12,735 nt of DNA from the IMG/VR virus record IMGVR_UViG_3300040801_002714, positions 84,436-97,170 of that record, one strand, 5' to 3'. This DNA comes from a virus. Taxonomy: Duplodnaviria > Heunggongvirae > Uroviricota > Caudoviricetes. The position numbers were made by a program, and so were the translations under genes. Positions within the stretch are counted from its first letter, which is position 1; every line of letters starts with the position of its first letter. Below, piece by piece: positions 1,655 to 12,426 of this stretch. Below the pieces are notes generated by a model. It saw only the letters and a list, made by a program, of their open reading frames with translations. It was not told the DNA's origin and ran no database searches.

Positions 1655-1932
1655 GCTCTCGATTTCCTTCTACTGTTGAACCAGGCAAAGCCCTCGGTTC
1701 CTTTCATTCGAAAAAAGTTTTCTCGTAGTATCACAAACCACGGCTTGAGCATCTGGCTGCGGCGCTGAGCAGAGAGGCCTCTGTTCTTTGCGTTTTTGCG
1801 ACCGTAAGGTCCGTACATCAGCAGATGATCGAATGTGATGTATCCGTGTTTGCGATGAAAATAACGATCCGAGCTGCGCTTAGTGAACTCAGTGAAGCGT
1901 CTAGACTTGGACCGACCAAAATACTCGTCCAT
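1651..1932 (-). CDS. Basic hypothetical protein (93 aa)
   Basis: TAATG overlap with the ligase stop (1930-1934) places the start at 1932 rather than 1944. Confidence 0.65.
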   Translation of the reverse strand: MDEYFGRSKSRRFTEFTKRSSDRYFHRKHGYITFDHLLMYGPYGRKNAKNRGLSAQRRSQMLKPWFVILRENFFRMKGTEGFAWFNSRRKSRA

Positions 1933-3278
1933 TATAGATCCCATACCGTAGCAAAGTCATCAGCAACAGTTTTGTCTGTGCGAATCTCTATAAATCTGGG
2001 CAAAAACAAACTCCAATCCACGCCCCAGCGGTTCTTGCCTCTGGCGTCGATCACCTCGTTAAATTTTACGGCCATTATGCTACCTACAACATCGGGCGTG
2101 ATCGTTTTGCGCTCTTCGTCTGTGAAGCCGCTGCCCACAGACACGTACAGCATACCGTCGCTGGTCTTACCGACTAGGGCGCCCAGCATGCCTTGGTACT
2201 TGCCTGTACCTTCAATCCACTCAACGATCTCCAGGTCGCAGTCTTTTTCTGCTTTGAACTTGAGCAGGTCCGGGCTGCGCTTGTTTTGCCAAATACCGGA
2301 GGAATTTTTGAGCATGATACCTTCTTCGCCCATCTCCAGTGCGTCGCCGAAGTAGTCGTTGGCAGCATCAAAATTCTCCAGTGTGCGAGTCTCGATGATC
2401 TCGTACTGGTCTGCAGGATTCGCTTCAACTAGATCTTTCACTGTGCTAAAGCGAACCGAGTAAGGTGTGGTGTCTTTGTATGCGCGGAACTTCTCCAGGG
2501 GGATCACATCCCAGATGCGCATACGCACACGAGAAGCTTCATCTTCGGAAATGGTACCTTTGATTGCCTTGCTTAAGATTCCGTTTCCTTTTTTCCTCGA
2601 CATGATGGATCCGTCGTCTTCGACGAGCACAAGTTCTCCATCAAATACCGCGCTCCGCCCGTAAGCTTCACCCAGCATACTGAAAGGATTATCGAAGTTA
2701 CCAAGCAGATCAACCATGCGCCCAGAGCGACCATACACACTGACCACACAGCCGCGTCCATCAATGAATTCCACATGAACGTTTGCCCTCATACCATCGG
2801 CCTTGAGCTGTCCAAATGCAGGCCACTGAATGTTTTTGATTGTTTTCTCGTCGTAAGGCTTGCCAAGCAAGCACGGGTAGGTTGGGATAAGACCCTTCCA
2901 AACTTTATTTACCGTGCTTTCTTGGACACCGCATCGCAAGTCCTTCTTGACGATGCGTTCGGCAACAGAGGCCGCTTCGGGGGTGAGTTGACTGAGCACC
3001 TCGGACATCTTGTCCTGGGCTGCATGACCGGTTACTTCTCGATTGGAGAACTGAGACAGTTGCTCGAAGAACCAGTCCAGACCTTTATCTCCAGTCGCTA
3101 CATACGCGGGTAGCTTGCGCATATAGAACTGAGTGTAAGGGTCTAGGGCATAAAGAAAAGCAGAGGAAAGATTGCTGTTAAATTTCCCCTGCTCAAGCAG
3201 TGCGAGTTTATCGTTGCGACTGCGTGTGGCCGCAACTTGTTCGAGGAGATCATAAACGTCGCAGATACCTTGTCTCAT
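1932..3278 (-). CDS. lig: ATP-dependent DNA ligase, T4 gp30-like
   Basis: Motif I QLKADGMR (KxDG), III FDGEL, IIIa IWDVI, IV EEGIMLK, V LLKFK, OB-fold VGSGF, and a T4-type N-terminal helical domain. Confidence 0.96.
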   Translation of the reverse strand: MRQGICDVYDLLEQVAATRSRNDKLALLEQGKFNSNLSSAFLYALDPYTQFYMRKLPAYVATGDKGLDWFFEQLSQFSNREVTGHAAQDKMSEVLSQLTPEAASVAERIVKKDLRCGVQESTVNKVWKGLIPTYPCLLGKPYDEKTIKNIQWPAFGQLKADGMRANVHVEFIDGRGCVVSVYGRSGRMVDLLGNFDNPFSMLGEAYGRSAVFDGELVLVEDDGSIMSRKKGNGILSKAIKGTISEDEASRVRMRIWDVIPLEKFRAYKDTTPYSVRFSTVKDLVEANPADQYEIIETRTLENFDAANDYFGDALEMGEEGIMLKNSSGIWQNKRSPDLLKFKAEKDCDLEIVEWIEGTGKYQGMLGALVGKTSDGMLYVSVGSGFTDEERKTITPDVVGSIMAVKFNEVIDARGKNRWGVDWSLFLPRFIEIRTDKTVADDFATVWDL

Positions 3279-3951: not shown

Positions 3952-4236
3952 TCAGTGTAAGATTCTTGCCAGGTCGTATGAATTTGAAATGTATTTGTCT
4001 GGGTCTGCGTCATAGTCTTGCATGGCCTGTTCAAGCGCTTCCTGGTTGTTGATGTCAAAGTCAGGCATGCCTATGACTCTGATAAAGCTGCATCCACAGA
4101 ATACATCGCAAAAGAGATACTCTCTCTGTAGATATGACCCCGGTGATACAAACTGGAATTTAAAGTCCTCTATTGCTCCCTCTTCATTCAACCCTAACAG
4201 TAGGCAGGTCTGTGTGAAGCTGATCGTCTGTGTCAT
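3952..4236 (-). CDS. Acidic hypothetical protein (94 aa)
   Basis: AAGGA SD upstream of ATG 4236; overlaps the 3' end of ftsH by 53 nt. Confidence 0.7.
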   Translation of the reverse strand: MTQTISFTQTCLLLGLNEEGAIEDFKFQFVSPGSYLQREYLFCDVFCGCSFIRVIGMPDFDINNQEALEQAMQDYDADPDKYISNSYDLARILH

Positions 4237-6016
4237 TGCTCTGTCCTTTCATAATATCCGCAATCTGATCTTGGTCGATCGTCTCATGTTGTACTAGAGC
4301 ACGAGCCATCTCGTCAAGCTTATTTTTATTTTTGACCAACAGTTCTCTAGCGCGATTCTGCGCAGTAGAGAGAATTTTGTTGATCTCTTCGTCTATAGTG
4401 GCCTGTATAGTCTCACTGAACACACTAGAGCCCATATAGTCTGTTTTTGCGTAATTTACGGGGCCTAACGACCCAAAACCCCACTCCGTAACCATGCGTC
4501 GAGCAAGCTCTGTCGCACGTACAATATCGCTGCTGGCACCAGTTGTTACAGCTTCAGCACCGAACTGAATCTCTTCTGCTAGTCGCCCGCCATACAGTGT
4601 AGCGATTGCGCTGTTCAGGTATGTGAGGCTGTGACTGTAGCGATCCTGGTCAGGCATAAACTGTGTTACACCAAGTGCACGGCCCCTCGGCACAATGCTG
4701 ACCTTGTAGACCGGATCGTGCTCAGGACTGAGGTAGCCAACGATAGCATGACCAGCTTCATGGTATGCAGTCAGGTTGCGTTCCTTCTCGTCCATGGGCT
4801 TAGGACTTTCCGCACCCATGATCACTTTGTCCTTTGCCATATCCATGTCGTTCATGGTAGTAGTCGACCGATTCTCACGTGCTGCAAAAATCGCTGCTTC
4901 TTGTACCAGCTTGGCCAAGTCTGCACCACTCATTCCTGTTGTTCCTTGTGCGATGCGCATGGTGTCAATGTTCGGGCCTCGATTAATCTGCTCCAGGTGC
5001 AGATCCAAAATCTGCTTACGAGCATCGAGGTCGGGTAAGCTAACATGAATAGTGCGGTCGAACCTTCCAGGACGTGTGAGTGCAGAGTCTAATACCTCTG
5101 GCATGTTGGTTGCGGCAATTACCATCACGCCACTGTCCTTGTCAAAGCCGTCCATTTCTACCAGCAGCTGGTTCAGCGTTTGATCAGCTTCTCGGTGTCC
5201 GCCACCGGCAGAGTCTCCCCTGCTGCGACCTACTGCGTCAATTTCGTCAATGAACACGATGCTAGGTGCGTGAGCGCGAGCTTGTTCAAACACACTCTTT
5301 ACCCTGGCGGCGCCAACCCCCACAAACATTTCCACAAACTCGGAGCCGCTCACGGTGAAAAAGGAAACACCAGCTTCGCCTGCAATAGCTTTCGCAAGCA
5401 GAGTCTTACCTGTGCCCGGAGGACCTGCAAGAAGAATACCAGTTGGCACATTTGCTCGTGCTGCGCGGTAGCGTTCGCGATCCTGGATAAACTGGATAAT
5501 CTCTTTGGCTTCGTCGTGTTCACCTGGATTCGATATCACATCTGTGAGTCGCGTCGTGTTCGACTTGGGATCAATCATCTTGGCTTTGCTTTTGCCAAAG
5601 TCGAGCAATCCTCCTGCGCCGCCGCCTTTGGACATTTTTGCAAGGAACAGGATCAGTAGCAGTATCGGCAATATGCTGAGGAAGATGATCATACCGATGC
5701 CCATGGGCTCTGCTGGCTGGGCAACTTCGACGTTGACACCTTGTGCAGCAAGAACATCCACGATGTTCGATACGTTACCAGGGGTAATGGTTTGATAGAT
5801 TTGGCCGCCTAGTTCAAAGGTGTACCAAATTGTGTGGCCGTCTTGATGGACTTGCAGCTCTTTGACTTCGCCCATCGTGCTGAGGAATTGCGAATAGGTT
5901 GCGTTGATTACCTGGGGATCAAAAAACATCGGTTTGATGATAAACCAAAACGCTAACAATAGAACCCCAATCACAATCAACGGAGTAAGACTGGGCTTCG
6001 GTGCTTGTTTGCTCAC
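4184..6016 (-). CDS. ftsH: ATP-dependent membrane zinc metalloprotease FtsH
   Basis: Two N-terminal TM helices, Walker A GPPGTGKT, pore loop FVEMFVG, Walker [27 protein letters not shown] zinc motif and third ligand in GASSD. GTG start with GAGGA SD. Confidence 0.97.
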
Positions 6017-6040
6017 ATCACAATCCTCTTTGTTACAAAA

Positions 6041-6268
6041 TCAGTCGCTATCTTCAACTTGCCAATCGCTGTCGCGTTTGTCTAGCCTCTTTAACTGTTT
6101 CTCAACTACAGTATCAATGTCGCTGTCTGTAGCTGTCTGGTAAGCCTTATTATAATGTTCTTCACAATAAGACTTTCTAACCTGTGTTGCAGTACCGCAC
6201 TTCCCCTTGCTGTCGATCCATTGGCATGTACGTGGCCGAAACTCGACAGAGAACCCATCCGTGTGCAT
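6041..6268 (-). CDS. Small Cys/His protein resembling the C-terminal domain of the alphaproteobacterial regulator GcrA (75 aa)
   Basis: TCQW...CG...SYCEEHYNKAY matches the C-x-W...CG...YC-x2-H-x3-AY pattern as recalled for GcrA. AGGAGGT SD (6276-6282) places the start at ATG 6268, not GTG 6277. Confidence 0.65.
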   Translation of the reverse strand: MHTDGFSVEFRPRTCQWIDSKGKCGTATQVRKSYCEEHYNKAYQTATDSDIDTVVEKQLKRLDKRDSDWQVEDSD

Positions 6269-6300
6269 TGTCAGCACCTCCTATTTTTATTATTGTGTTC

Positions 6301-6329
6301 AGTCTAGCACCGAAGTGCAGAATAGTCAA
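6301..6329 (-). promoter_or_regulatory. sigma70-type (early) promoter for the GcrA-like/ftsH operon
   Basis: TTGACT (6324-6329), 17-nt spacer, TAGACT (6301-6306). The spacer contains the inverted repeat GCAC-TTCG-GTGC. Confidence 0.75.
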
Positions 6330-6631
6330 TCAGTGAATTCTACTATTAAATACTTGCATCTGCGGTCTACACAGTTAGCAACAGCATCCATAAAATCGTA
6401 TTCTTCTTTGGTGCTAAGGTGCCAATAGATCTCGCTAGTGTAATCTGCAAATCCTGTGAAATTCTTATTGCACTCTGTTAGGTAATCCTCGATAGACAAT
6501 TCGCCATCGAAGTCGTATGGTGGGTATTGACTTTCTAGATCCTCAGCAAAGATAACCTTAATGAGGCCTAATACATCTCCCGACTCTTCCACGACATTGT
6601 ATCGTGTTCCTAGATTTTGTAAGTTTGTCAT
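6326..6631 (-). CDS. Acidic hypothetical protein (101 aa)
   Basis: GGAGA SD upstream of the ATG; operon packing. Confidence 0.75.
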   Translation of the reverse strand: MTNLQNLGTRYNVVEESGDVLGLIKVIFAEDLESQYPPYDFDGELSIEDYLTECNKNFTGFADYTSEIYWHLSTKEEYDFMDAVANCVDRRCKYLIVEFTD

Positions 6632-6644
6632 TATGTCTCCAGTT

Positions 6645-6659
6645 GGCCCGTTGCAGGCC
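6645..6659. terminator. Small GC hairpin between genes (possible weak terminator or stabiliser)
   Basis: Minus strand GGCCUG-CAA-CGGGCC. No U-tract on the coding strand; only a short TTTAT on the plus side. Confidence 0.25.
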
Positions 6660-6660
6660 T

Positions 6661-6945
6661 TTATATGTCGTAAAAAGAAATCGTGTGTTCATTCTCAACT
6701 TCTGCATGAACACCTGGTATTGATACCAGTTGAAAATCCTGTGTCCACTCCGGACCTTCTGCCCAGTGAACTTGTGCGTCTGCAATACTTCCTTGTGTGT
6801 CTGCTTGTTCTTTTGTGTACACCTTTACTCCGTTAGGATCGAAGCCATTGCCTCTAGCAATCTCTTTCAACTGCTGGGCAACACTTTGAGCCGAATGGTA
6901 CGATGGTAAGTTTTTGCAAGCTTCCCAATGCTGTTTGGTTCTCAT
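6661..6945 (-). CDS. Hypothetical protein (94 aa)
   Basis: AAGGGG SD upstream of the ATG; operon packing. Confidence 0.75.
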   Translation of the reverse strand: MRTKQHWEACKNLPSYHSAQSVAQQLKEIARGNGFDPNGVKVYTKEQADTQGSIADAQVHWAEGPEWTQDFQLVSIPGVHAEVENEHTISFYDI

Positions 6946-6984
6946 AGGACATCCCCTTATTGATATTGTGTCTCCTATGCTGTG

Positions 6985-7530
6985 TCACTGTGTGTTGCCA
7001 AGTCTGGCATTTACAATTTGCCAGTCTACAATTTTCCAAATGTTTGCAAGGTATTTCTTTTTGTCGGGACCGTAGTCCATATAGTATGCATGTTCCCACA
7101 TATCTACAATAACTGCAACATCGGAAACTGATTTGTGATTCTGGATAGTTTTGATAGTGCCGGTTGTACTCAAATAGCACCATCCGCTTCCTTGTATCGA
7201 TAGTGCCTCTTCAGCAAAAGCATCTTTAAAATCTGAGAAATTGCCAAACTGTTTTTCAATCAATGCGCCGGATGCATCGAACGGAGAGTTTCCAGTTTGG
7301 GCAGGTTGCATCTGTTCGTGCCAAAGATTATGTAGCTGTACTCCTGCTAGTGCAAAATCGTCACCCGATTGTGCTCGGTCAACATAACCTTTGTGGAGAG
7401 TATTATAATGAAAGTCTATGCTTTGTTTGCTTAGTACAGGTTCTGCGTCAGCAAGAGCGATGGGGAGCTTCACTCTGTATGCTGTTTCTTGAGCTTCTAT
7501 TATTGTGATGTATCTTTTCAGCTCTTCCAT
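6985..7530 (-). CDS. sod: Fe/Mn-family superoxide dismutase, shortened, with an N-terminal leader
   Basis: FHYNTLHKGYV, AGVQLHNLW, QGSGW and DMWEHAYY; all four metal ligands (H, H, D, H) are present. Confidence 0.92.
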   Translation of the reverse strand: MEELKRYITIIEAQETAYRVKLPIALADAEPVLSKQSIDFHYNTLHKGYVDRAQSGDDFALAGVQLHNLWHEQMQPAQTGNSPFDASGALIEKQFGNFSDFKDAFAEEALSIQGSGWCYLSTTGTIKTIQNHKSVSDVAVIVDMWEHAYYMDYGPDKKKYLANIWKIVDWQIVNARLGNTQ

Positions 7531-7536
7531 AATGTA

Positions 7537-7851
7537 TTATTTATCGAACTCTTTCCTTATAATGTAGGATCCCCATTCCGATAGTGTGAAAAAACTGGCG
7601 TCTTCTGAGTCACTGAAGTATAATCGAACTCTGCGATTATCACCAAACTGACCGAGAGCGTCTTCGTAGATTATTACTTCACCTTTGAGGTATTTGATTA
7701 GCCAGGCTCGCAGTTCGCTATAGCGATGCTCCGGGACTCCTTGATGTGGTCGTATGCCATACTCAGTGATGTACACATAGGTATATTGTTCTTTGTTGAT
7801 CCAACGTTTGGCATCGTCAGATAGTTGTGTCCAGAATAATACCTGTGCCAT
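7537..7851 (-). CDS. Hypothetical protein with a C-terminal F-x-D-x2-DA-x2-F-x-L-x2-W pattern typical of small large-phage proteins
   Basis: TAATG overlap with the upstream gene; sequence RLYFSDSEDASFFTLSEW. Confidence 0.75.
   Translation of the reverse strand: MAQVLFWTQLSDDAKRWINKEQYTYVYITEYGIRPHQGVPEHRYSELRAWLIKYLKGEVIIYEDALGQFGDNRRVRLYFSDSEDASFFTLSEWGSYIIRKEFDK
7538..7545 (-). promoter_or_regulatory. T4-like late promoter (GATAAATA) for sod
   Basis: Lies 7 nt upstream of the ATG with no SD in between. Confidence 0.65.
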
Positions 7852-8330
7852 TACGGGAATGCTCTATCAAACAGTTCGTCTTCACTTAGTTCGACTTGGC
7901 CTTGCATCTTTCTGATTGTTAGCAGTTCAGGATCGCTGCGCTCGGCCTTTAGCCTTTTACGTAGCTTTCCGTAGAGAACAAGCTTATCTCGAAAAGTGAA
8001 CTCACCGCTGTATTCTATGGTTCTTGGGGGTCCAGCGGCGGAGTCTTTTTCTGTCCAACATTTCAGTGATCCGCAATCTAGACCGTATTGTAAGATAATG
8101 ATGTTGTGCCCTTTGGGTGGCAACAGATCAAAGAATAGAATCTCGGTACTAGAAAGTTTATTAACGTCTCGAGTTTCGACCCAGGCAGTAATTAAGCATT
8201 CTCTCCACCAGAGCTGCTGATCGTCTAACAGCAACCAAACTTCTTTTCCGAATTCACTTAGCAGAATTCGCGGAAAGAAAGGTACAGAGTCAGTTGACTT
8301 CTTCGTATGTGAGTTGTAGAGGATGCCCAT
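7851..8330 (-). CDS. Hypothetical protein (up to 159 aa; start uncertain)
   Basis: Long ORF filling the space, coupled to the downstream gene by TAATG. Overlaps clpS by 41 nt and has a weak SD. Confidence 0.6.
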   Translation of the reverse strand: MGILYNSHTKKSTDSVPFFPRILLSEFGKEVWLLLDDQQLWWRECLITAWVETRDVNKLSSTEILFFDLLPPKGHNIIILQYGLDCGSLKCWTEKDSAAGPPRTIEYSGEFTFRDKLVLYGKLRKRLKAERSDPELLTIRKMQGQVELSEDELFDRAFP

Positions 8331-8622
8331 GCTTTTCTGCTAGCTGTCTGCCTTCGAATGCTTTTGTTTCTGCAATTTCTTCTGTGTACACACCTGCAAC
8401 GGCGTGACCGCTTTCGTGGACTTTAAACATGAGCTCGACTGCTTCTTCTTGTGTCTTTTCGAACAGAAGCACGAGGAGGCCGACCACAAAGTCCATAGGA
8501 GTGTAGTCGTCATTCCAGATGATGACCTGGAATAGACTGGGCTCTTTGACTTCGATTTCTGTCTCAGTCTCGGCTTCAATGTCGATTTCTGAGGTCATGG
8601 CGAATTCAAAATCTGAGATCAT
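8290..8622 (-). CDS. clpS: ClpS N-degron adaptor (alternative start at ATG 8598)
   Basis: Signature NDDYTPMDFVV, the conserved His in KVHESG, and the EIAETK ClpA-contact motif. Confidence 0.93.
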   Translation of the reverse strand: MISDFEFAMTSEIDIEAETETEIEVKEPSLFQVIIWNDDYTPMDFVVGLLVLLFEKTQEEAVELMFKVHESGHAVAGVYTEEIAETKAFEGRQLAEKHGHPLQLTYEEVN

Positions 8623-8626
8623 AGCA

Positions 8627-8673
8627 AGCTCTCTGCAAGGTATATTCTGTTACTGTAACACTCGCAGAGAGCT
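8627..8673 (-). promoter_or_regulatory. 13-bp stem-loop occluding the clpS ribosome-binding region on read-through transcripts
   Basis: AGCUCUCUGCGAG (8673-8661) pairs with CUUGCAGAGAGCU (8639-8627), with one G-U pair. The 3' arm holds GAGAG and ends 4 nt before ATG 8622. Confidence 0.6.
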
Positions 8674-8680
8674 GCGTCAA
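8652..8680 (-). promoter_or_regulatory. sigma70-type promoter for clpS with an extended -10
   Basis: TTGACG (8675-8680), 17-nt spacer, TACAGT (8652-8657) preceded by TG-n. Confidence 0.65.
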
Positions 8681-8688
8681 CTTAACAA

Positions 8689-9132
8689 TTACTTGATAGT
8701 AAATGTCTTAGGCTGGTCTTGCTCCGGCACATTGCGACGAAGCACAATGCTTAAGATGCCGTGATCAAGTGTTACACTGACTACTTCGATGTGCTCGGCT
8801 AGTGTCCAGTTCTTGGTAAAAGAACGAGATGAAATGCCTTTGTGAATATAGCCGTTTCCTTCACTGCTTTCATCATCGAGCTTTTTGCCTTGTACTTTTA
8901 GTACGTTCTTGTGCTGCTCGATGTCAAGGCTGTCACGAGTGAAGCCTGCAACTGCCAATTCGATAACATAGTTGTCTTCGTCAATCTTGACCAAATTGTA
9001 AGGCGGGTAAGATTGACCCAGAGTCTGATGAGACAGTTTTTCGAAAAGTGGCTCAAAGCCCACTCCGTACTGTGCAATGTTATCAAGTAGTGTAGGAAGT
9101 GTATCCGTGGTGATACGTCTTTGGTTTGTCAT
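8689..9132 (-). CDS. hsp20: Small heat shock protein Hsp20/IbpA family (147 aa)
   Basis: YPPYNL, YVIELAVAGF, YIHKGISSRSFTKNWTL and LDHGILSI. AAGGAG SD at 9140-9145 places the start at 9132. Confidence 0.96.
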   Translation of the reverse strand: MTNQRRITTDTLPTLLDNIAQYGVGFEPLFEKLSHQTLGQSYPPYNLVKIDEDNYVIELAVAGFTRDSLDIEQHKNVLKVQGKKLDDESSEGNGYIHKGISSRSFTKNWTLAEHIEVVSVTLDHGILSIVLRRNVPEQDQPKTFTIK

Positions 9133-9138
9133 TTTTAT

Positions 9139-9191
9139 ACTCCTTATATTAAGCAAGTTAAATATTGGGGGCCCGAAATTCGGCGCCCCCA
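9139..9191 (-). promoter_or_regulatory. ROSE-like RNA thermometer in the hsp20 5' UTR
   Basis: Hairpin I: UGGGGGC-G-CCGA-AUU-UCGG-GCCCCCA. Hairpin II: ACUU(G)CUU-AAUAU-AAGGAGU, with the UUGCU motif and a bulged G opposite the SD. Confidence 0.75.
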
Positions 9192-9199
9192 GGTAGTGC

Positions 9200-9207
9200 T
9201 ATTTATA
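9200..9207 (-). promoter_or_regulatory. T4-like late promoter (TATAAATA) for hsp20
   Basis: Exact T4 late consensus, immediately upstream of the two-hairpin leader. Confidence 0.75.
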
Positions 9208-9223
9208 TTTTATTATTATCAAA

Positions 9224-9290
9224 TACGATCATTAACGATCGCAGGGTTGTCACGATGAAATAGCTACATCGCATTACACCTAAGTGTAAT
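9224..9290 (-). other. Three back-to-back hairpins between rpsU and the hsp20 promoter
   Basis: AUUACAC/GUGUAAU (9290-9273), GCGAUG/CAUCGU (9272-9252) and UGCGAUC/GAUCGUA (9243-9224), followed by UUUG. Confidence 0.5.
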
Positions 9291-9293
9291 TCT

Positions 9294-9533
9294 TTATGCC
9301 CATTGGCTCTCTTTGGACATTTGTTCCTGCTTCTTTAGCCAACGCTTACGAGCCATTTTCTTATCGCGTTGCTTTTTGACAGCAGGCTTTTCATATTCCA
9401 TGCGCTCTCTTACTTCGCGCAGTTTGCCGGACTCATTTACCTTTTTGCTGAACAGCTTCAGCGCACGATTAAAGTCACGGTCTACAGTAACAGAAAGACC
9501 CTTGATCGGTCCTCTATTATTATTTTTTCGCAT
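9294..9533 (-). CDS. rpsU: Phage-encoded ribosomal protein bS21
   Basis: FNRALKLF...G-x-L-x-EVRER-x2-YEKP...R-x-K-x2-ARKR matches the bS21 pattern; overlaps the clpX stop. Confidence 0.9.
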   Translation of the reverse strand: MRKNNNRGPIKGLSVTVDRDFNRALKLFSKKVNESGKLREVRERMEYEKPAVKKQRDKKMARKRWLKKQEQMSKESQWA

Positions 9534-10734
9534 TTTGGTTTACCTTTTTCTTGGCGCGTTTGTATATGTATTTAACCTCGCCTTGCGGTGACACCGTGAT
9601 TTTTCGAACTCCCTTCTTGGCAAGATCTGGAAGTTCAAATTGTGTAGATTGTAGTGTTGCTTCCACTAAAGACCTAAGACCACGTGCACCTGTCTTTTTC
9701 TGAATGCTTTGTTCTGCGACACTTCTGATATAATCCGGGTGAAAATCTAGGAGAACTTCGTCGACGGAAAATAAATGTTTGAACTGGTTAACAATGCAGT
9801 CTTTTGTTTCTGTCATGATTTCACACAACATGCTTTCGTCAAGCTGGTCCAGTGTGACCACAACTGGCACACGGCCTACGAACTCTGGAATGATGCCGTA
9901 CTGTATAAGATCGTCGGTGGTCACTGTTGCAAGAAGATCTGCGTCTTTTTGTTCGTCGTGAATGTTTGCGCCGATACCAATTGAACTGATCTTTTTATTC
10001 TTCTTGATAATTTTATCTAGTCCAACAAACGCACCACTGGCCACAAACAGTACATTTGTTGTATCAAAGTCTACAGTTTCGCTTCCTACTGTGACTTTGA
10101 GTGCAGTGCCTTCGATTAATTTAAGCAGTGCCTGCTGTACACCTTCTCCCGATACGTCTCGTGCAACTGTAGCACTCTCGGAGCGTTTGGCAATTTTATC
10201 CACTTCGTCGATGAACACAATGCCTTGTTGTGCCTGTTCGACGTCGCCATCAGCAGCATCAATCAATCTACTGATCAAATTTTCAACGTCGTCGCCTACA
10301 TAGCCCACTTCTGTAAGAGTGGTGGCGTCGCCGATTACGTATGGAACATCAAAAAGATCAGCAAGCGTTCTTACGAGGTGTGTCTTCCCGCAGCCGCTTG
10401 GGCCGATTAATAGTAGGTTGGACTTATCTAGTCTAAGGTCTGTGTGGTTATTGATTCGCTTGTAATGATTATATGTGGCAACACTGATCGCAACTTTTGC
10501 TCGATCTTGGCCAACAACATAATCATCTAGGTATTCTTTGATTTGTGCAGGGGTATAGCTTATTTCTACGTCGTCGGCTTCTTCTTCCTTGCCAGTGTGT
10601 AGTACCTGATGACAATAGTCTACACAAACATTACAGATGTAAATAGTTTCATCATTATGGACCGGGCCTTCGATTAACTGCTCAACTCTGCCTCTGGTCT
10701 TCTTACAAAAGGTACATCTCAGTGCTTTTGCCAA
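9520..10734 (-). CDS. clpX: ClpX AAA+ unfoldase (divergent)
   Basis: Zinc-binding domain CTFC...ICNVC, Walker A GPSGCGKT, pore-1 GYVG, Walker B FIDEVDKI, RDVSGEGVQQALLK, GARGLRS. TTG start with AAGGAG SD. Confidence 0.96.
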   Translation of the reverse strand: MAKALRCTFCKKTRGRVEQLIEGPVHNDETIYICNVCVDYCHQVLHTGKEEEADDVEISYTPAQIKEYLDDYVVGQDRAKVAISVATYNHYKRINNHTDLRLDKSNLLLIGPSGCGKTHLVRTLADLFDVPYVIGDATTLTEVGYVGDDVENLISRLIDAADGDVEQAQQGIVFIDEVDKIAKRSESATVARDVSGEGVQQALLKLIEGTALKVTVGSETVDFDTTNVLFVASGAFVGLDKIIKKNKKISSIGIGANIHDEQKDADLLATVTTDDLIQYGIIPEFVGRVPVVVTLDQLDESMLCEIMTETKDCIVNQFKHLFSVDEVLLDFHPDYIRSVAEQSIQKKTGARGLRSLVEATLQSTQFELPDLAKKGVRKITVSPQGEVKYIYKRAKKKVNQNAKK

Positions 10735-10744
10735 CCCCGACTCC

Positions 10745-11653
10745 TTAGGTATCTGTATCTATATTATTCTTTATTTTGTCTTCGGCTCTAACAGACGCTG
10801 TATCTGTTATGCTTATAGAATTTTCTCTAAGATCTTCATCTGGTGTTTCCGGTACTTCATCAGCTTCTGCGCTTTCTTCCTGGGCTGTGTTTTCTAAAGG
10901 TTTCGTTTCACGCAATTGTGCCAACGATGCGTTAGCAGCGATTAATAGTAGCACAGCTAAAGGATCGAACACAACTACTAAAATAATTATTACCCACCTA
11001 ACTGCACTTTCTAGGTTGCTTTGGGCGTCTTCGTATACGAGCTCTGCAACATATCGGATTGGACCGACTTCAAGTTCAAGTTCTCGGACTTCGGCTTCAA
11101 GAGAGAGTTTGGTATCTTCATAACCATCAATTGTTGCTTGTGCTTGGTCAATAATATCTCGAAGTTGGGCTCGCTCATCGGTCTGCGATTTACGTACTGC
11201 CAGTGCGCCCTCTGGGCCTCGTATGCGGTCGTATTCTTGTAGGATAGCAACAGCTTGGTCAAGCTGTTCAATAACTTTTTCGGCGTCATTGATTTCTCTT
11301 TGTTCTCTTGCAATCATCTGCTCAAGTCTTTCGATCTTAGCAGAATTGTTTCCAACGGGTTGTGTTTGTTCTAAGTGTGCCTTGCTCAAGAATCCAAAGA
11401 TTCCCATGCTGGTAATAAACATGAGAATTATTACTGCGGAAGTTAAATACGCTTTTAATAACAGTCCAGGTCTATCCCAGTTCTGGTATAGCCAGCTTGC
11501 AGTTACAAGCTTTCCAATTTCTAGAACTGATCCCATGATAAGGATTGGAACTGCGGCAGCAGCAAATATAGCCATTAGTCCTGCAATCGAGAACCAAGCT
11601 GCAACAGCAGCAATAGACAGAGCCGTAATGAATGTCAGAATAGCAAAAGGCAT
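10745..11653 (-). CDS. Membrane protein: about 3 N-terminal TM helices, a long coiled coil, a C-terminal TM region and an acidic tail
   Basis: Hydrophobic segments at about aa 3-55 and 66-90, a heptad-rich stretch at about aa 100-195, and VIIILVVVFDPLAVLLLIAA. Its stop overlaps the clpX SD. Confidence 0.9.
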   Translation of the reverse strand: MPFAILTFITALSIAAVAAWFSIAGLMAIFAAAAVPILIMGSVLEIGKLVTASWLYQNWDRPGLLLKAYLTSAVIILMFITSMGIFGFLSKAHLEQTQPVGNNSAKIERLEQMIAREQREINDAEKVIEQLDQAVAILQEYDRIRGPEGALAVRKSQTDERAQLRDIIDQAQATIDGYEDTKLSLEAEVRELELEVGPIRYVAELVYEDAQSNLESAVRWVIIILVVVFDPLAVLLLIAANASLAQLRETKPLENTAQEESAEADEVPETPDEDLRENSISITDTASVRAEDKIKNNIDTDT

Positions 11654-11661
11654 AATAACAC

Positions 11662-11669
11662 TATTTATC
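11662..11669 (-). promoter_or_regulatory. T4-like late promoter (GATAAATA) for the membrane protein-clpX-rpsU unit
   Basis: Lies 8 nt upstream of the ATG with no SD in between. Confidence 0.65.
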
Positions 11670-11931: not shown

Positions 11932-12426
11932 TTAGCCCTCATACCATGCTGCATTACTAGGTGTTTCTCTCACCACAACTTTGCGACAGCGTATGCCACC
12001 GTTCGGATAATGATCTGGTAACCAAATAACGTTCAGGTAATCGAACAGGTACTTGCTTAGTGCTTCGCATCCTGTTGCTTCAACCACCACCATTTTTGCT
12101 AGTGCTTTATTGTGTAGCATCTCGAATGTCTCAAACTCCGGATCATCTTCTGCCACAAGCATTGTGTGATCGAAGTTTTCTTTGAGAAACTCCTTGAATG
12201 TGCGTAGTGAACCGAAGTCCACTACCCAGTTTCTTGCGTCTAATGTCTCACACTCAAACTCAAAGTAAAAGCCAAGTGCATAACCATGCAGTGCATTACA
12301 GCCCGGGACTTCGTCACGAGTATACAGTTCTGTCGGGCCTTTGCCACTTTTCCTATCAGCACGCCATTGTCTATAGCAAACTGCAAAGCCTTCTTCGGGC
12401 CCGTAGTTTTTAGTTGATACGTACAT
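11932..12426 (-). CDS. queD: QueD/6-pyruvoyl-tetrahydropterin synthase-like T-fold protein (COG0720 family)
   Basis: C-x3-HGY (CNALHGY), NWVVDFG, FDHT and the C-terminal VRETP. Confidence 0.8.
   Translation of the reverse strand: MYVSTKNYGPEEGFAVCYRQWRADRKSGKGPTELYTRDEVPGCNALHGYALGFYFEFECETLDARNWVVDFGSLRTFKEFLKENFDHTMLVAEDDPEFETFEMLHNKALAKMVVVEATGCEALSKYLFDYLNVIWLPDHYPNGGIRCRKVVVRETPSNAAWYEG

Follow-up and report, generated by a model that had tools for sequence, protein, structure and literature searches.

Why would a tailed phage keep an unfoldase, an N-degron adaptor, a small heat-shock protein, a membrane protease and a ribosomal protein side by side, and do these genes serve a common end? 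The question is raised by the stretch of viral DNA analyzed here (hereafter, the window), 12,735 nucleotides that form the final 12.7 kb (C1:84436-97170, where C1 denotes contig coordinates) of the 97,170-bp IMG/VR viral contig IMGVR_UViG_3300040801_002714. An initial annotation placed genes for ClpX, ClpS, Hsp20, FtsH, bS21 and a superoxide dismutase (SOD), together with a membrane protein, at window positions 4184-11653, and interpreted them as a system for taking over host proteostasis and translation. Each gene that it named was confirmed by Pfam and NCBIfam searches, and all of the genes in this island lie on the minus strand. The explanation that we favor, with a probability of about 0.7, is that the island is this phage's version of an ancient block of proteostasis genes plus bS21, passed on by vertical descent, which makes the phage self-sufficient for regulated proteolysis; the block would belong to a lineage of huge, T4-like phages that has the Agrobacterium phage Atu_ph07, Phosso and the cultured Pseudomonas phage PA5oct among its relatives, and would here have been enlarged by FtsH and SOD.

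The source contig, which CheckV estimates to be ~25% complete, carries 133 of its 154 crude open reading frames (ORFs) on the minus strand. It encodes baseplate, tail and virion structural proteins, as well as a DNA polymerase of the T4 family, which among cultured phages is most similar to those of Phosso, Atu_ph07 and the Rak2/121Q group (40-43% identity). Because its complete relatives (n = 4) are 328-369 kb long with direct terminal repeats, the contig is best read, from its sequence, as a fragment of a huge T4-like phage.

A conserved block around clpX, with ClpP and ClpA elsewhere on the contig

Relatives of the 7.5-kb island were detectable only at the protein level, a megablast search against the phage collection having yielded no match. 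Synteny was assessed in 80 IMG/VR loci that hold ClpX relatives (40-57% ClpX identity), with genes counted within 10 kb of clpX. Hsp20 was found in 68 of these loci, ClpS in 67, QueD in 23, DNA ligase in 19 and ClpP in 15, and all neighbor matches were co-oriented and in the same order. A homolog of the membrane protein precedes clpX in 47 loci (applying a 50%-coverage filter), and the bS21 gene follows clpX in 43, as it also does in phage PA5oct. The conserved core is therefore membrane protein-ClpX-(bS21)-Hsp20-ClpS, an order seen in about 68 of the 80 loci, with ClpP and ClpA located elsewhere in the genome. Co-conservation across huge phages, which the initial annotation had predicted for the whole island, was thus found for this core but not for FtsH (0/80 loci) or SOD (2/80).

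The absence of ClpP and ClpA, to which the initial annotation had drawn attention, holds for the window but not for the contig, which encodes both, ~10 kb (ClpP) and ~50 kb (ClpA) from the island. The ClpP gene (C1:75910-76509) lies outside the window and encodes a canonical protein, scoring 257.8 bits with NF001368 (cut-off 249) and only 104.5 bits with the model for head-maturation ClpP-like proteins (cut-off 120); its Ser-His-Asp triad aligns to that of solved ClpP structures. The ClpA gene (C1:37432-39702) encodes 756 amino acids (aa) with a Clp_N domain and two AAA modules, and matches TIGR02639 over its full length (E = 2e-262). A ClpA-like protein and ClpP were likewise present in all five relatives searched, four of which are complete genomes. 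These results bear on the proposal that ClpS, made early, redirects host ClpAP; a review has likewise proposed that phage ClpS proteins supply substrates to host ClpAP (PMC7824862). With ClpXP and ClpAPS of its own, the phage would have no need of the host's ClpAP, and that proposal loses its premise.

The features of the island, in window coordinates and all on the minus strand, are as follows:

11662..11669, minus: late-type promoter motif GATAAATA, 8 nt before the membrane-gene ATG, with no Shine-Dalgarno sequence between
10745..11653, minus: membrane protein of 302 aa, DUF4407-like (AlphaFold2 [AF2] model, fold search, homologs)
9520..10734, minus: ClpX unfoldase (both NCBIfam equivalog cut-offs passed)
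9294..9533, minus: ribosomal protein bS21 (Pfam, TIGR00030)
9200..9207, minus: TATAAATA, the exact T4 late-promoter consensus, ending 7 nt upstream of the ROSE element
9127..9192, minus: predicted ROSE-type RNA thermometer, the hsp20 leader (Rfam RF02523, covariation)
8689..9132, minus (ORF 8689-9156): IbpA/IbpB-like Hsp20, start corrected to the ATG at 9132
8652..8680, minus: sigma70-like promoter before clpS, TTGACG-17-TACAGT, the second hexamer preceded by TG
8290..8622, minus: ClpS N-degron adaptor (Pfam, crystal-structure alignment)
7537..8330, minus: two ORFs of 159 aa and 104 aa, no Pfam or PHROG match
7538..7545, minus: late-type motif GATAAATA, 7 nt before the sod ATG
6985..7530, minus: short Fe/Mn superoxide dismutase (Pfam, PDB alignment)
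6326..6945, minus: two small ORFs of 94 aa and 101 aa, kept in a few close relatives, no family match
6301..6329, minus: sigma70-like promoter before the ftsH unit (78-aa gene, then ftsH), TTGACT-17-TAGACT
6041..6277, minus: 78-aa GcrA-C-like protein, first gene of the ftsH unit
4184..6016, minus: FtsH membrane AAA+ zinc protease, intact (TIGR01241, Pfam domains, motifs)
11932-12426, minus: QueD/PTPS-like gene, flanking
1932-3278, minus: ATP-dependent DNA ligase gene, flanking

ClpS scores 101 bits with its Pfam family and, in a residue alignment to crystal structures 3dnj and 3g1b, retains the NDDYTPM pocket motif and the conserved His. Hsp20 scores 54 bits with Pfam HSP20 and matches the IbpA/B model with E = 1e-26. 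For bS21 the scores are 43.7 bits with Pfam (cut-off 27) and 36 bits with TIGR00030 (cut-off 28.95), and the first 14 nt of its gene overlap the end of clpX.

FtsH passes the TIGR01241 cut-off (655 vs. 600 bits) and contains the Pfam domains Peptidase_M41, AAA and FtsH_ext, with HEAGH, Walker A and B, the second region of homology (SRH) and the N-terminal transmembrane (TM)/periplasmic region all present. It is missing not only from the 80 loci, within 10 kb of clpX, but also from the four complete relatives. A single-sequence search of viral contigs for FtsH relatives returned no match; relatives were found by a profile search, which added one more viral contig, L095 (IMGVR_UViG_3300034417_000033), that has both FtsH and SOD. 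Syntenic FtsH genes occur in L095 and in PA5oct. SOD matches Pfam Sod_Fe_C (87.6 bits) and Sod_Fe_N (27.6 bits), and all four metal ligands align with those of PDB structures; it lacks ~25 residues of the N-terminal helical hairpin and has ~15-20 extra N-terminal residues. The L095 copy of SOD, 51% identical, occupies the same position. At 7475-20731 of L095 the gene order is ClpS-SOD-small ORF-FtsH-ligase, with ClpP 10 kb downstream, the encoded proteins being 42-52% identical to those of the window; neither ClpX, Hsp20 nor bS21 was found within 7 kb upstream of that block. Gene order therefore suggests that the island divides into two sub-blocks, of which FtsH plus SOD is the sporadic second one.

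This modularity is one of several observations that would fit a simpler view, in which the genes are a loose set of host-derived auxiliary functions that act singly, their adjacency reflecting shared descent and a permissive insertion region. ClpS serves ClpA and not its neighbor ClpX, and both ClpA and ClpP are encoded at a distance; bS21, the membrane gene, SOD and FtsH are variably present among relatives; and the block is bordered, in PA5oct as here, by the unrelated genes for QueD and DNA ligase in the same order. Yet the order ClpX-(bS21)-Hsp20-ClpS is kept in ~85% of loci, down to 40% ClpX identity, clpX overlaps rpsU and is abutted by the membrane gene, and the leader found before hsp20 has spread to a dnaK gene inserted in the island in relatives (see below), which argues for common regulation of the chaperone genes. 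We consider the loose-set view unlikely, although it deserves some weight.

Among the remaining genes, the 78-aa protein gave a weak, below-threshold match to the C-terminal part of GcrA (Pfam, E = 0.008) and has homologs in six relatives, and the 159-aa and 104-aa ORFs have no homologs among the relatives' loci. PHROG and lenient Pfam scans gave no usable match for the eight or so small ORFs that lack a known family. The contig also carries further host-like maintenance genes, namely an RtcB-type RNA ligase (C1:69424-70659, minus strand), which lies behind an ATAAATA motif, and a nicotinamide phosphoribosyltransferase (C1:59255-60748, minus strand).

A ClpX variant and its membrane-protein neighbor

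ClpX scores above both of its NCBIfam cut-offs (478 and 442 bits vs. 359 and 371). Its N-terminal C4 zinc-binding domain (Pfam zf-C4_ClpX, 40.4 bits) has a 5-residue insertion relative to Escherichia coli, and the zinc-finger cysteines (CxxC...CxxC) are invariant across the clade alignment. The segments GPSGCGKT, FIDEVDK, GYVG, GRVP and GARGLR align to E. coli ClpX, and Walker A and B, the GYVG pore-1 loop, the Arg finger and sensor-II are all intact. Two loops differ. The RKH loop is deleted, 13 residues separating the flanking motifs as compared with 20 in E. coli-type proteins, and the ClpP-docking loop, which follows the pattern [LIVM]-G-[FL], reads IGI instead of IGF. The RKH deletion is common to the subclade of the window (L014-L027, L056 and L068, the ~15 closest phage relatives), while more distant phage ClpX proteins with the same synteny retain GGRKHP. 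IGI is found in most of the RKH-less subclade, L023, for instance, having IGF, and IGF or MGF occurs outside it. The description of this ClpX as a variant was, in this sense, borne out.

According to work on E. coli from the Baker and Sauer laboratories, the RKH loop is reportedly required for recognition of ssrA-tagged substrates. By analogy, the window ClpX is probably blind to ssrA-type tags, and because the loop needed for such tags in E. coli is deleted, it is reasonable to expect an altered choice of substrates.

The 302-aa membrane protein encoded immediately upstream of clpX matched no Pfam family, DUF4407 (PF14362) included, and no PHROG. Of its 42 aligned homologs, seven matched DUF4407 weakly, with a best E value of 2e-4. 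The AF2 model (pLDDT 84) comprises three N-terminal TM helices, a long coiled-coil hairpin and a fourth TM helix, and ends in a disordered acidic tail. This predicted fold matches DUF4407 entries in the AlphaFold database (AFDB) with E = 1e-6, and a fold search of the PDB returned nothing at E <= 0.001. From the model, the protein is best described as DUF4407-like. Weak matches to tetraspanins were judged to be compositional TM similarity, and a tetraspanin identity was rejected. Altogether, 49 distinct homologous ORFs were found, 289-686 aa in length, most of which end just before clpX. On the basis of this adjacency, we hypothesize that the membrane protein might tether ClpX to the membrane or regulate it there.

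Promoter classes and a ROSE-type leader

The initial annotation had reported sigma70-like promoters before clpS and the ftsH unit and ATAAATA motifs before the other units, and these were found where it had placed them, with TATAAATA preceding hsp20 and GATAAATA preceding both sod and the membrane gene. Of the 19 copies of ATAAATA on the contig, 16 are on the coding strand and 3 on the opposite one. For 13 of the 16 coding-strand copies an ORF starts no more than 70 nt downstream (binomial P ~2e-11), and the upstream share over both strands (14/19) is the highest among 21 7-mers of the same composition. Virion structural genes are among those preceded by the motif, which resembles the T4-type late -10 element that has no -35. 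Non-coding DNA makes up 5.3% of the contig and holds 15 of the 26 matches to the strict sigma70-like pattern TTGACN-16/18-TANNNT, nearly always on the coding strand. Given these statistics, which exceed chance, and a gp55-like late sigma factor (phrog_234, E ~1e-20) encoded by all four complete relatives, we regard both the sigma70-like and the (G/T)ATAAATA promoter classes as credible.

Whether the two classes also separate the genes in time is another matter. The take-over interpretation joins the early hijacking of host ClpAP by ClpS, with FtsH likewise early, to a late supply of ClpX, Hsp20 and bS21 for morphogenesis, the two phases being strictly divided by promoter class. Support for it comes from the distribution of motifs just described and from the loss of the RKH loop in ClpX; moreover, a TTGACN-17/18-TANNNT site is present in the hsp20-clpS spacer of 11 of the 12 closest distinct relatives scored (all but L068), and of 21/53 overall. 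On the other hand, clpS is preceded by ATAAATA, or by both motif types, in many relatives. Terminator-like sites occur at background level in the window (13 vs. 11.2 expected), with none above background separating the units, and the gaps between island genes are 6-137 nt, so that read-through between units is to be expected. In PA5oct, ftsH is reported to be transcribed throughout infection (PMC7318152). A strict early/late split is therefore not supported. Since, in addition, neither FtsH nor SOD is conserved together with the core, and both ClpA and ClpP are encoded by the phage itself as well as by its relatives, we consider the take-over interpretation improbable.

Late-type promoters before membrane-clpX-rpsU and hsp20, such as also precede virion structural genes, could be taken to mean that the main targets of ClpXP, Hsp20 and the membrane protein are structural proteins of the phage and not host proteins; the three would then work at the membrane late in infection, helping for instance to process scaffolds or proheads or to fold tail fibers. 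A review has suggested that ClpA and ClpX may aid virion assembly (PMC7824862), and in other phages bS21 is expressed with structural genes (PMC9723584). The contig's ClpP is nevertheless of the cellular type, falling short of the head-maturation model as described above, and the island is not beside capsid genes; a dedicated role in morphogenesis seems to us very improbable.

The initial annotation had called the island RNA-gated, and for hsp20 this prediction gained support from the sequence. ROSE_3 (Rfam RF02523) matches positions 9127-9192 (minus strand) with 46.1 bits, above the gathering threshold of 43 (E = 5.5e-7), and the Rfam alignment terminates at the AUG at 9132. The position of the Shine-Dalgarno sequence and this alignment identify that ATG as the hsp20 start. 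Hairpin I of the leader has a bulged G, and hairpin II pairs UUGCU with the AAGGAG Shine-Dalgarno sequence; the fold is better than those of 200/200 shuffled sequences (z = -3.2). Because TATAAATA ends 7 nt upstream, the ROSE element would begin the late transcript. The arrangement recurs: among 54 distinct relatives, 35 have ATAAATA within the 160 nt that precede hsp20, and 51 have a TTGCT...AAGGAG...ATG hairpin before the gene.

Since scanning at the Rfam gathering threshold detected ROSE_3 in only one of 15 related loci, we built a covariance model from the leaders of 26 relatives, which recovered 59 copies in relatives, all in the orientation of ClpX. Misaligned positions in a plain MAFFT alignment led RNAalifold to under-call the structure. 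Among 46 distinct relatives, compensatory changes were found in eight of the ten pairs of helix I, and covariation amounted to 135 double-change cells as compared with 50 in shuffled alignments; none of 500 shuffles scored as high, and slid controls were far lower. Structure and covariation together support the prediction that hsp20 is gated by a ROSE-type RNA thermometer. ROSE-like leaders were also found before a dnaK gene that follows clpX (L086:3434-3494, L087:1238-1295, L089:9485-9543 and L090:3457-3515) and, in two contigs, before a gene of ~100 aa (L087:10292-10355 and L089:18723-18786). That such leaders precede hsp20, dnaK and the ~100-aa genes suggests a small thermometer-controlled phage regulon.

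In the window and in ~28 of 41 relatives (counted by eye), (N)TAAATA lies 3-8 nt ahead of the membrane-gene ATG, and no Shine-Dalgarno sequence occurs between the two; sod is arranged likewise. This spacing, and the lack of a Shine-Dalgarno sequence, suggest that the late mRNAs of the membrane gene and sod may be leaderless or nearly so.

Considering promoters, leaders and ClpX together, one could go further and envisage a phage-autonomous heat-shock regulon, in which ROSE gates Hsp20 (and DnaK in relatives) on late transcripts, an RKH-less, IGI-type ClpX is tethered or regulated by the conserved DUF4407-like membrane protein, the latter is made from a near-leaderless late mRNA, and the co-translated bS21 retunes host ribosomes to such messages. 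This extended proposal we consider improbable.

How the island may work, and what it resembles

With respect to binding partners, substrate range, timing and benefit, we infer the following for the inherited, self-sufficient block. Host sigma70-type promoters would drive clpS and the ftsH unit, and gp55-type late promoters the membrane-clpX-rpsU unit, hsp20 and sod, with read-through between units likely. The phage ClpX presumably docks on the phage's own ClpP, and ClpS presumably passes N-degron substrates to the phage ClpA-ClpP. FtsH would contribute quality control of membrane proteins, and the IbpA-like Hsp20 would hold unfolded proteins, its translation being gated by ROSE at the 5' end of the late-promoter transcript. 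The bS21 protein, predicted to be translationally coupled to ClpX, would be destined for host ribosomes. The likeliest benefit is that the capacity for folding, turnover and translation would be maintained during a long, protein-heavy infection after host expression has been shut down.

Several findings weigh against this reading. The change from IGF to IGI could weaken docking to ClpP. ClpS and Hsp20 score below their NCBIfam equivalog cut-offs, as does ClpA (872 vs. 993 bits). No gp55-like gene was found on the source contig, which represents ~25% of the genome, so that the sigma factor sought by the initial annotation is known from the complete relatives and not from the contig itself. PA5oct gave no ROSE match. 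Finally, because FtsH and SOD are missing from most relatives, the seven genes are not one obligate unit.

The closest described counterpart is in the Pseudomonas phages vB_PaeM_PA5oct and MIJ3 (Wroclawvirus). There, EST35_0254-0272 comprise QueD, ClpX, bS21, two hypothetical proteins, Hsp20, ClpS, further hypothetical proteins, a membrane protein, FtsH and DNA ligase, with ClpP a few kb on, in the same order and orientation as in the window. ClpX and FtsH of PA5oct are ~43% and ~40% identical to those of the window. Since the QueD/PTPS-like and ligase genes hold corresponding positions on either side of the island in both phages, the conserved synteny reaches beyond the proteostasis genes. 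The PA5oct ClpX also lacks the RKH motif; however, its loop is of full length (20 aa) and degenerate rather than deleted. PA5oct further lacks SOD, any detectable ROSE leader and a DUF4407-like gene upstream of clpX, and the gene before ftsH encodes a membrane protein annotated as FtsH-interacting, where the window has the 78-aa GcrA-C-like gene. The presence of FtsH in phages of the PA5oct/MIJ3 type has already been remarked on (PMC7318152). The block is thus not a new system, but a richer copy of the kind annotated in the PA5oct and MIJ3 records.

The closest cultured DNA polymerases (41-43% identity) belong to Atu_ph07 and the Sinorhizobium phages Phosso and AP-J-162, which encode ClpX, ClpA, Hsp20, bS21 and several Clp proteins (PMC7824862, PMC11242549). 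In Atu_ph07, clpX adjoins genes for IF3 and topoisomerase, not those for bS21, Hsp20 and ClpS, and its ClpX loop, GGRKNP, is not deleted. More broadly, ClpP, ClpS, ClpA, ClpX and Hsp20 were listed in jumbo phages by Iyer et al. (PMC7824862), and the freshwater Bacteroidetes phages of Chen et al. (2022; PMC9723584) encode, like the window, a bS21, for which incorporation into host ribosomes in the late phase of infection was proposed. Among the genes no more than ten places away from bS21 in 900 phage genomes, that study counted 127 for Hsp20, and 50 and 47 for two pVOGs of Clp proteases. The bS21 genes of those phages lie among capsid and terminase genes (PMC9723584), whereas that of the window would be translationally coupled to clpX.

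Compared with the ClpXP/ClpAPS/FtsH/IbpA network of the E. coli paradigm, the components encoded here carry the defining motifs of each cellular counterpart, and ROSE_3, the family that the hsp20 leader matches, belongs to small heat-shock genes of bacteria. Unlike in the bacterial network, the RKH loop of ClpX is deleted and IGF replaced by IGI, the genes form a cluster with bS21 in a viral genome, and the thermometer follows a T4-type late promoter, not a sigma32 promoter.

As a gene inventory the island is not new, having been annotated in PA5oct and its pieces listed in reviews. What the window adds is a copy with FtsH, SOD and, on the same contig, ClpA, as well as the RKH-less/IGI subclade of ClpX and contig-wide promoter statistics. 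Its particular interest lies in a natural clade of ClpX without the RKH loop, a conserved, putative membrane partner and a bacterial-type RNA thermometer predicted behind a phage late promoter. Huge phages of this kind appear to carry a full kit for regulated proteolysis and chaperoning, consisting of two Clp machines with an adaptor, a small heat-shock protein, sometimes FtsH and, in relatives, DnaK. Because the order of the block has been kept over deep divergence, we would argue that control of protein turnover, besides nucleotide metabolism, limits long infections.

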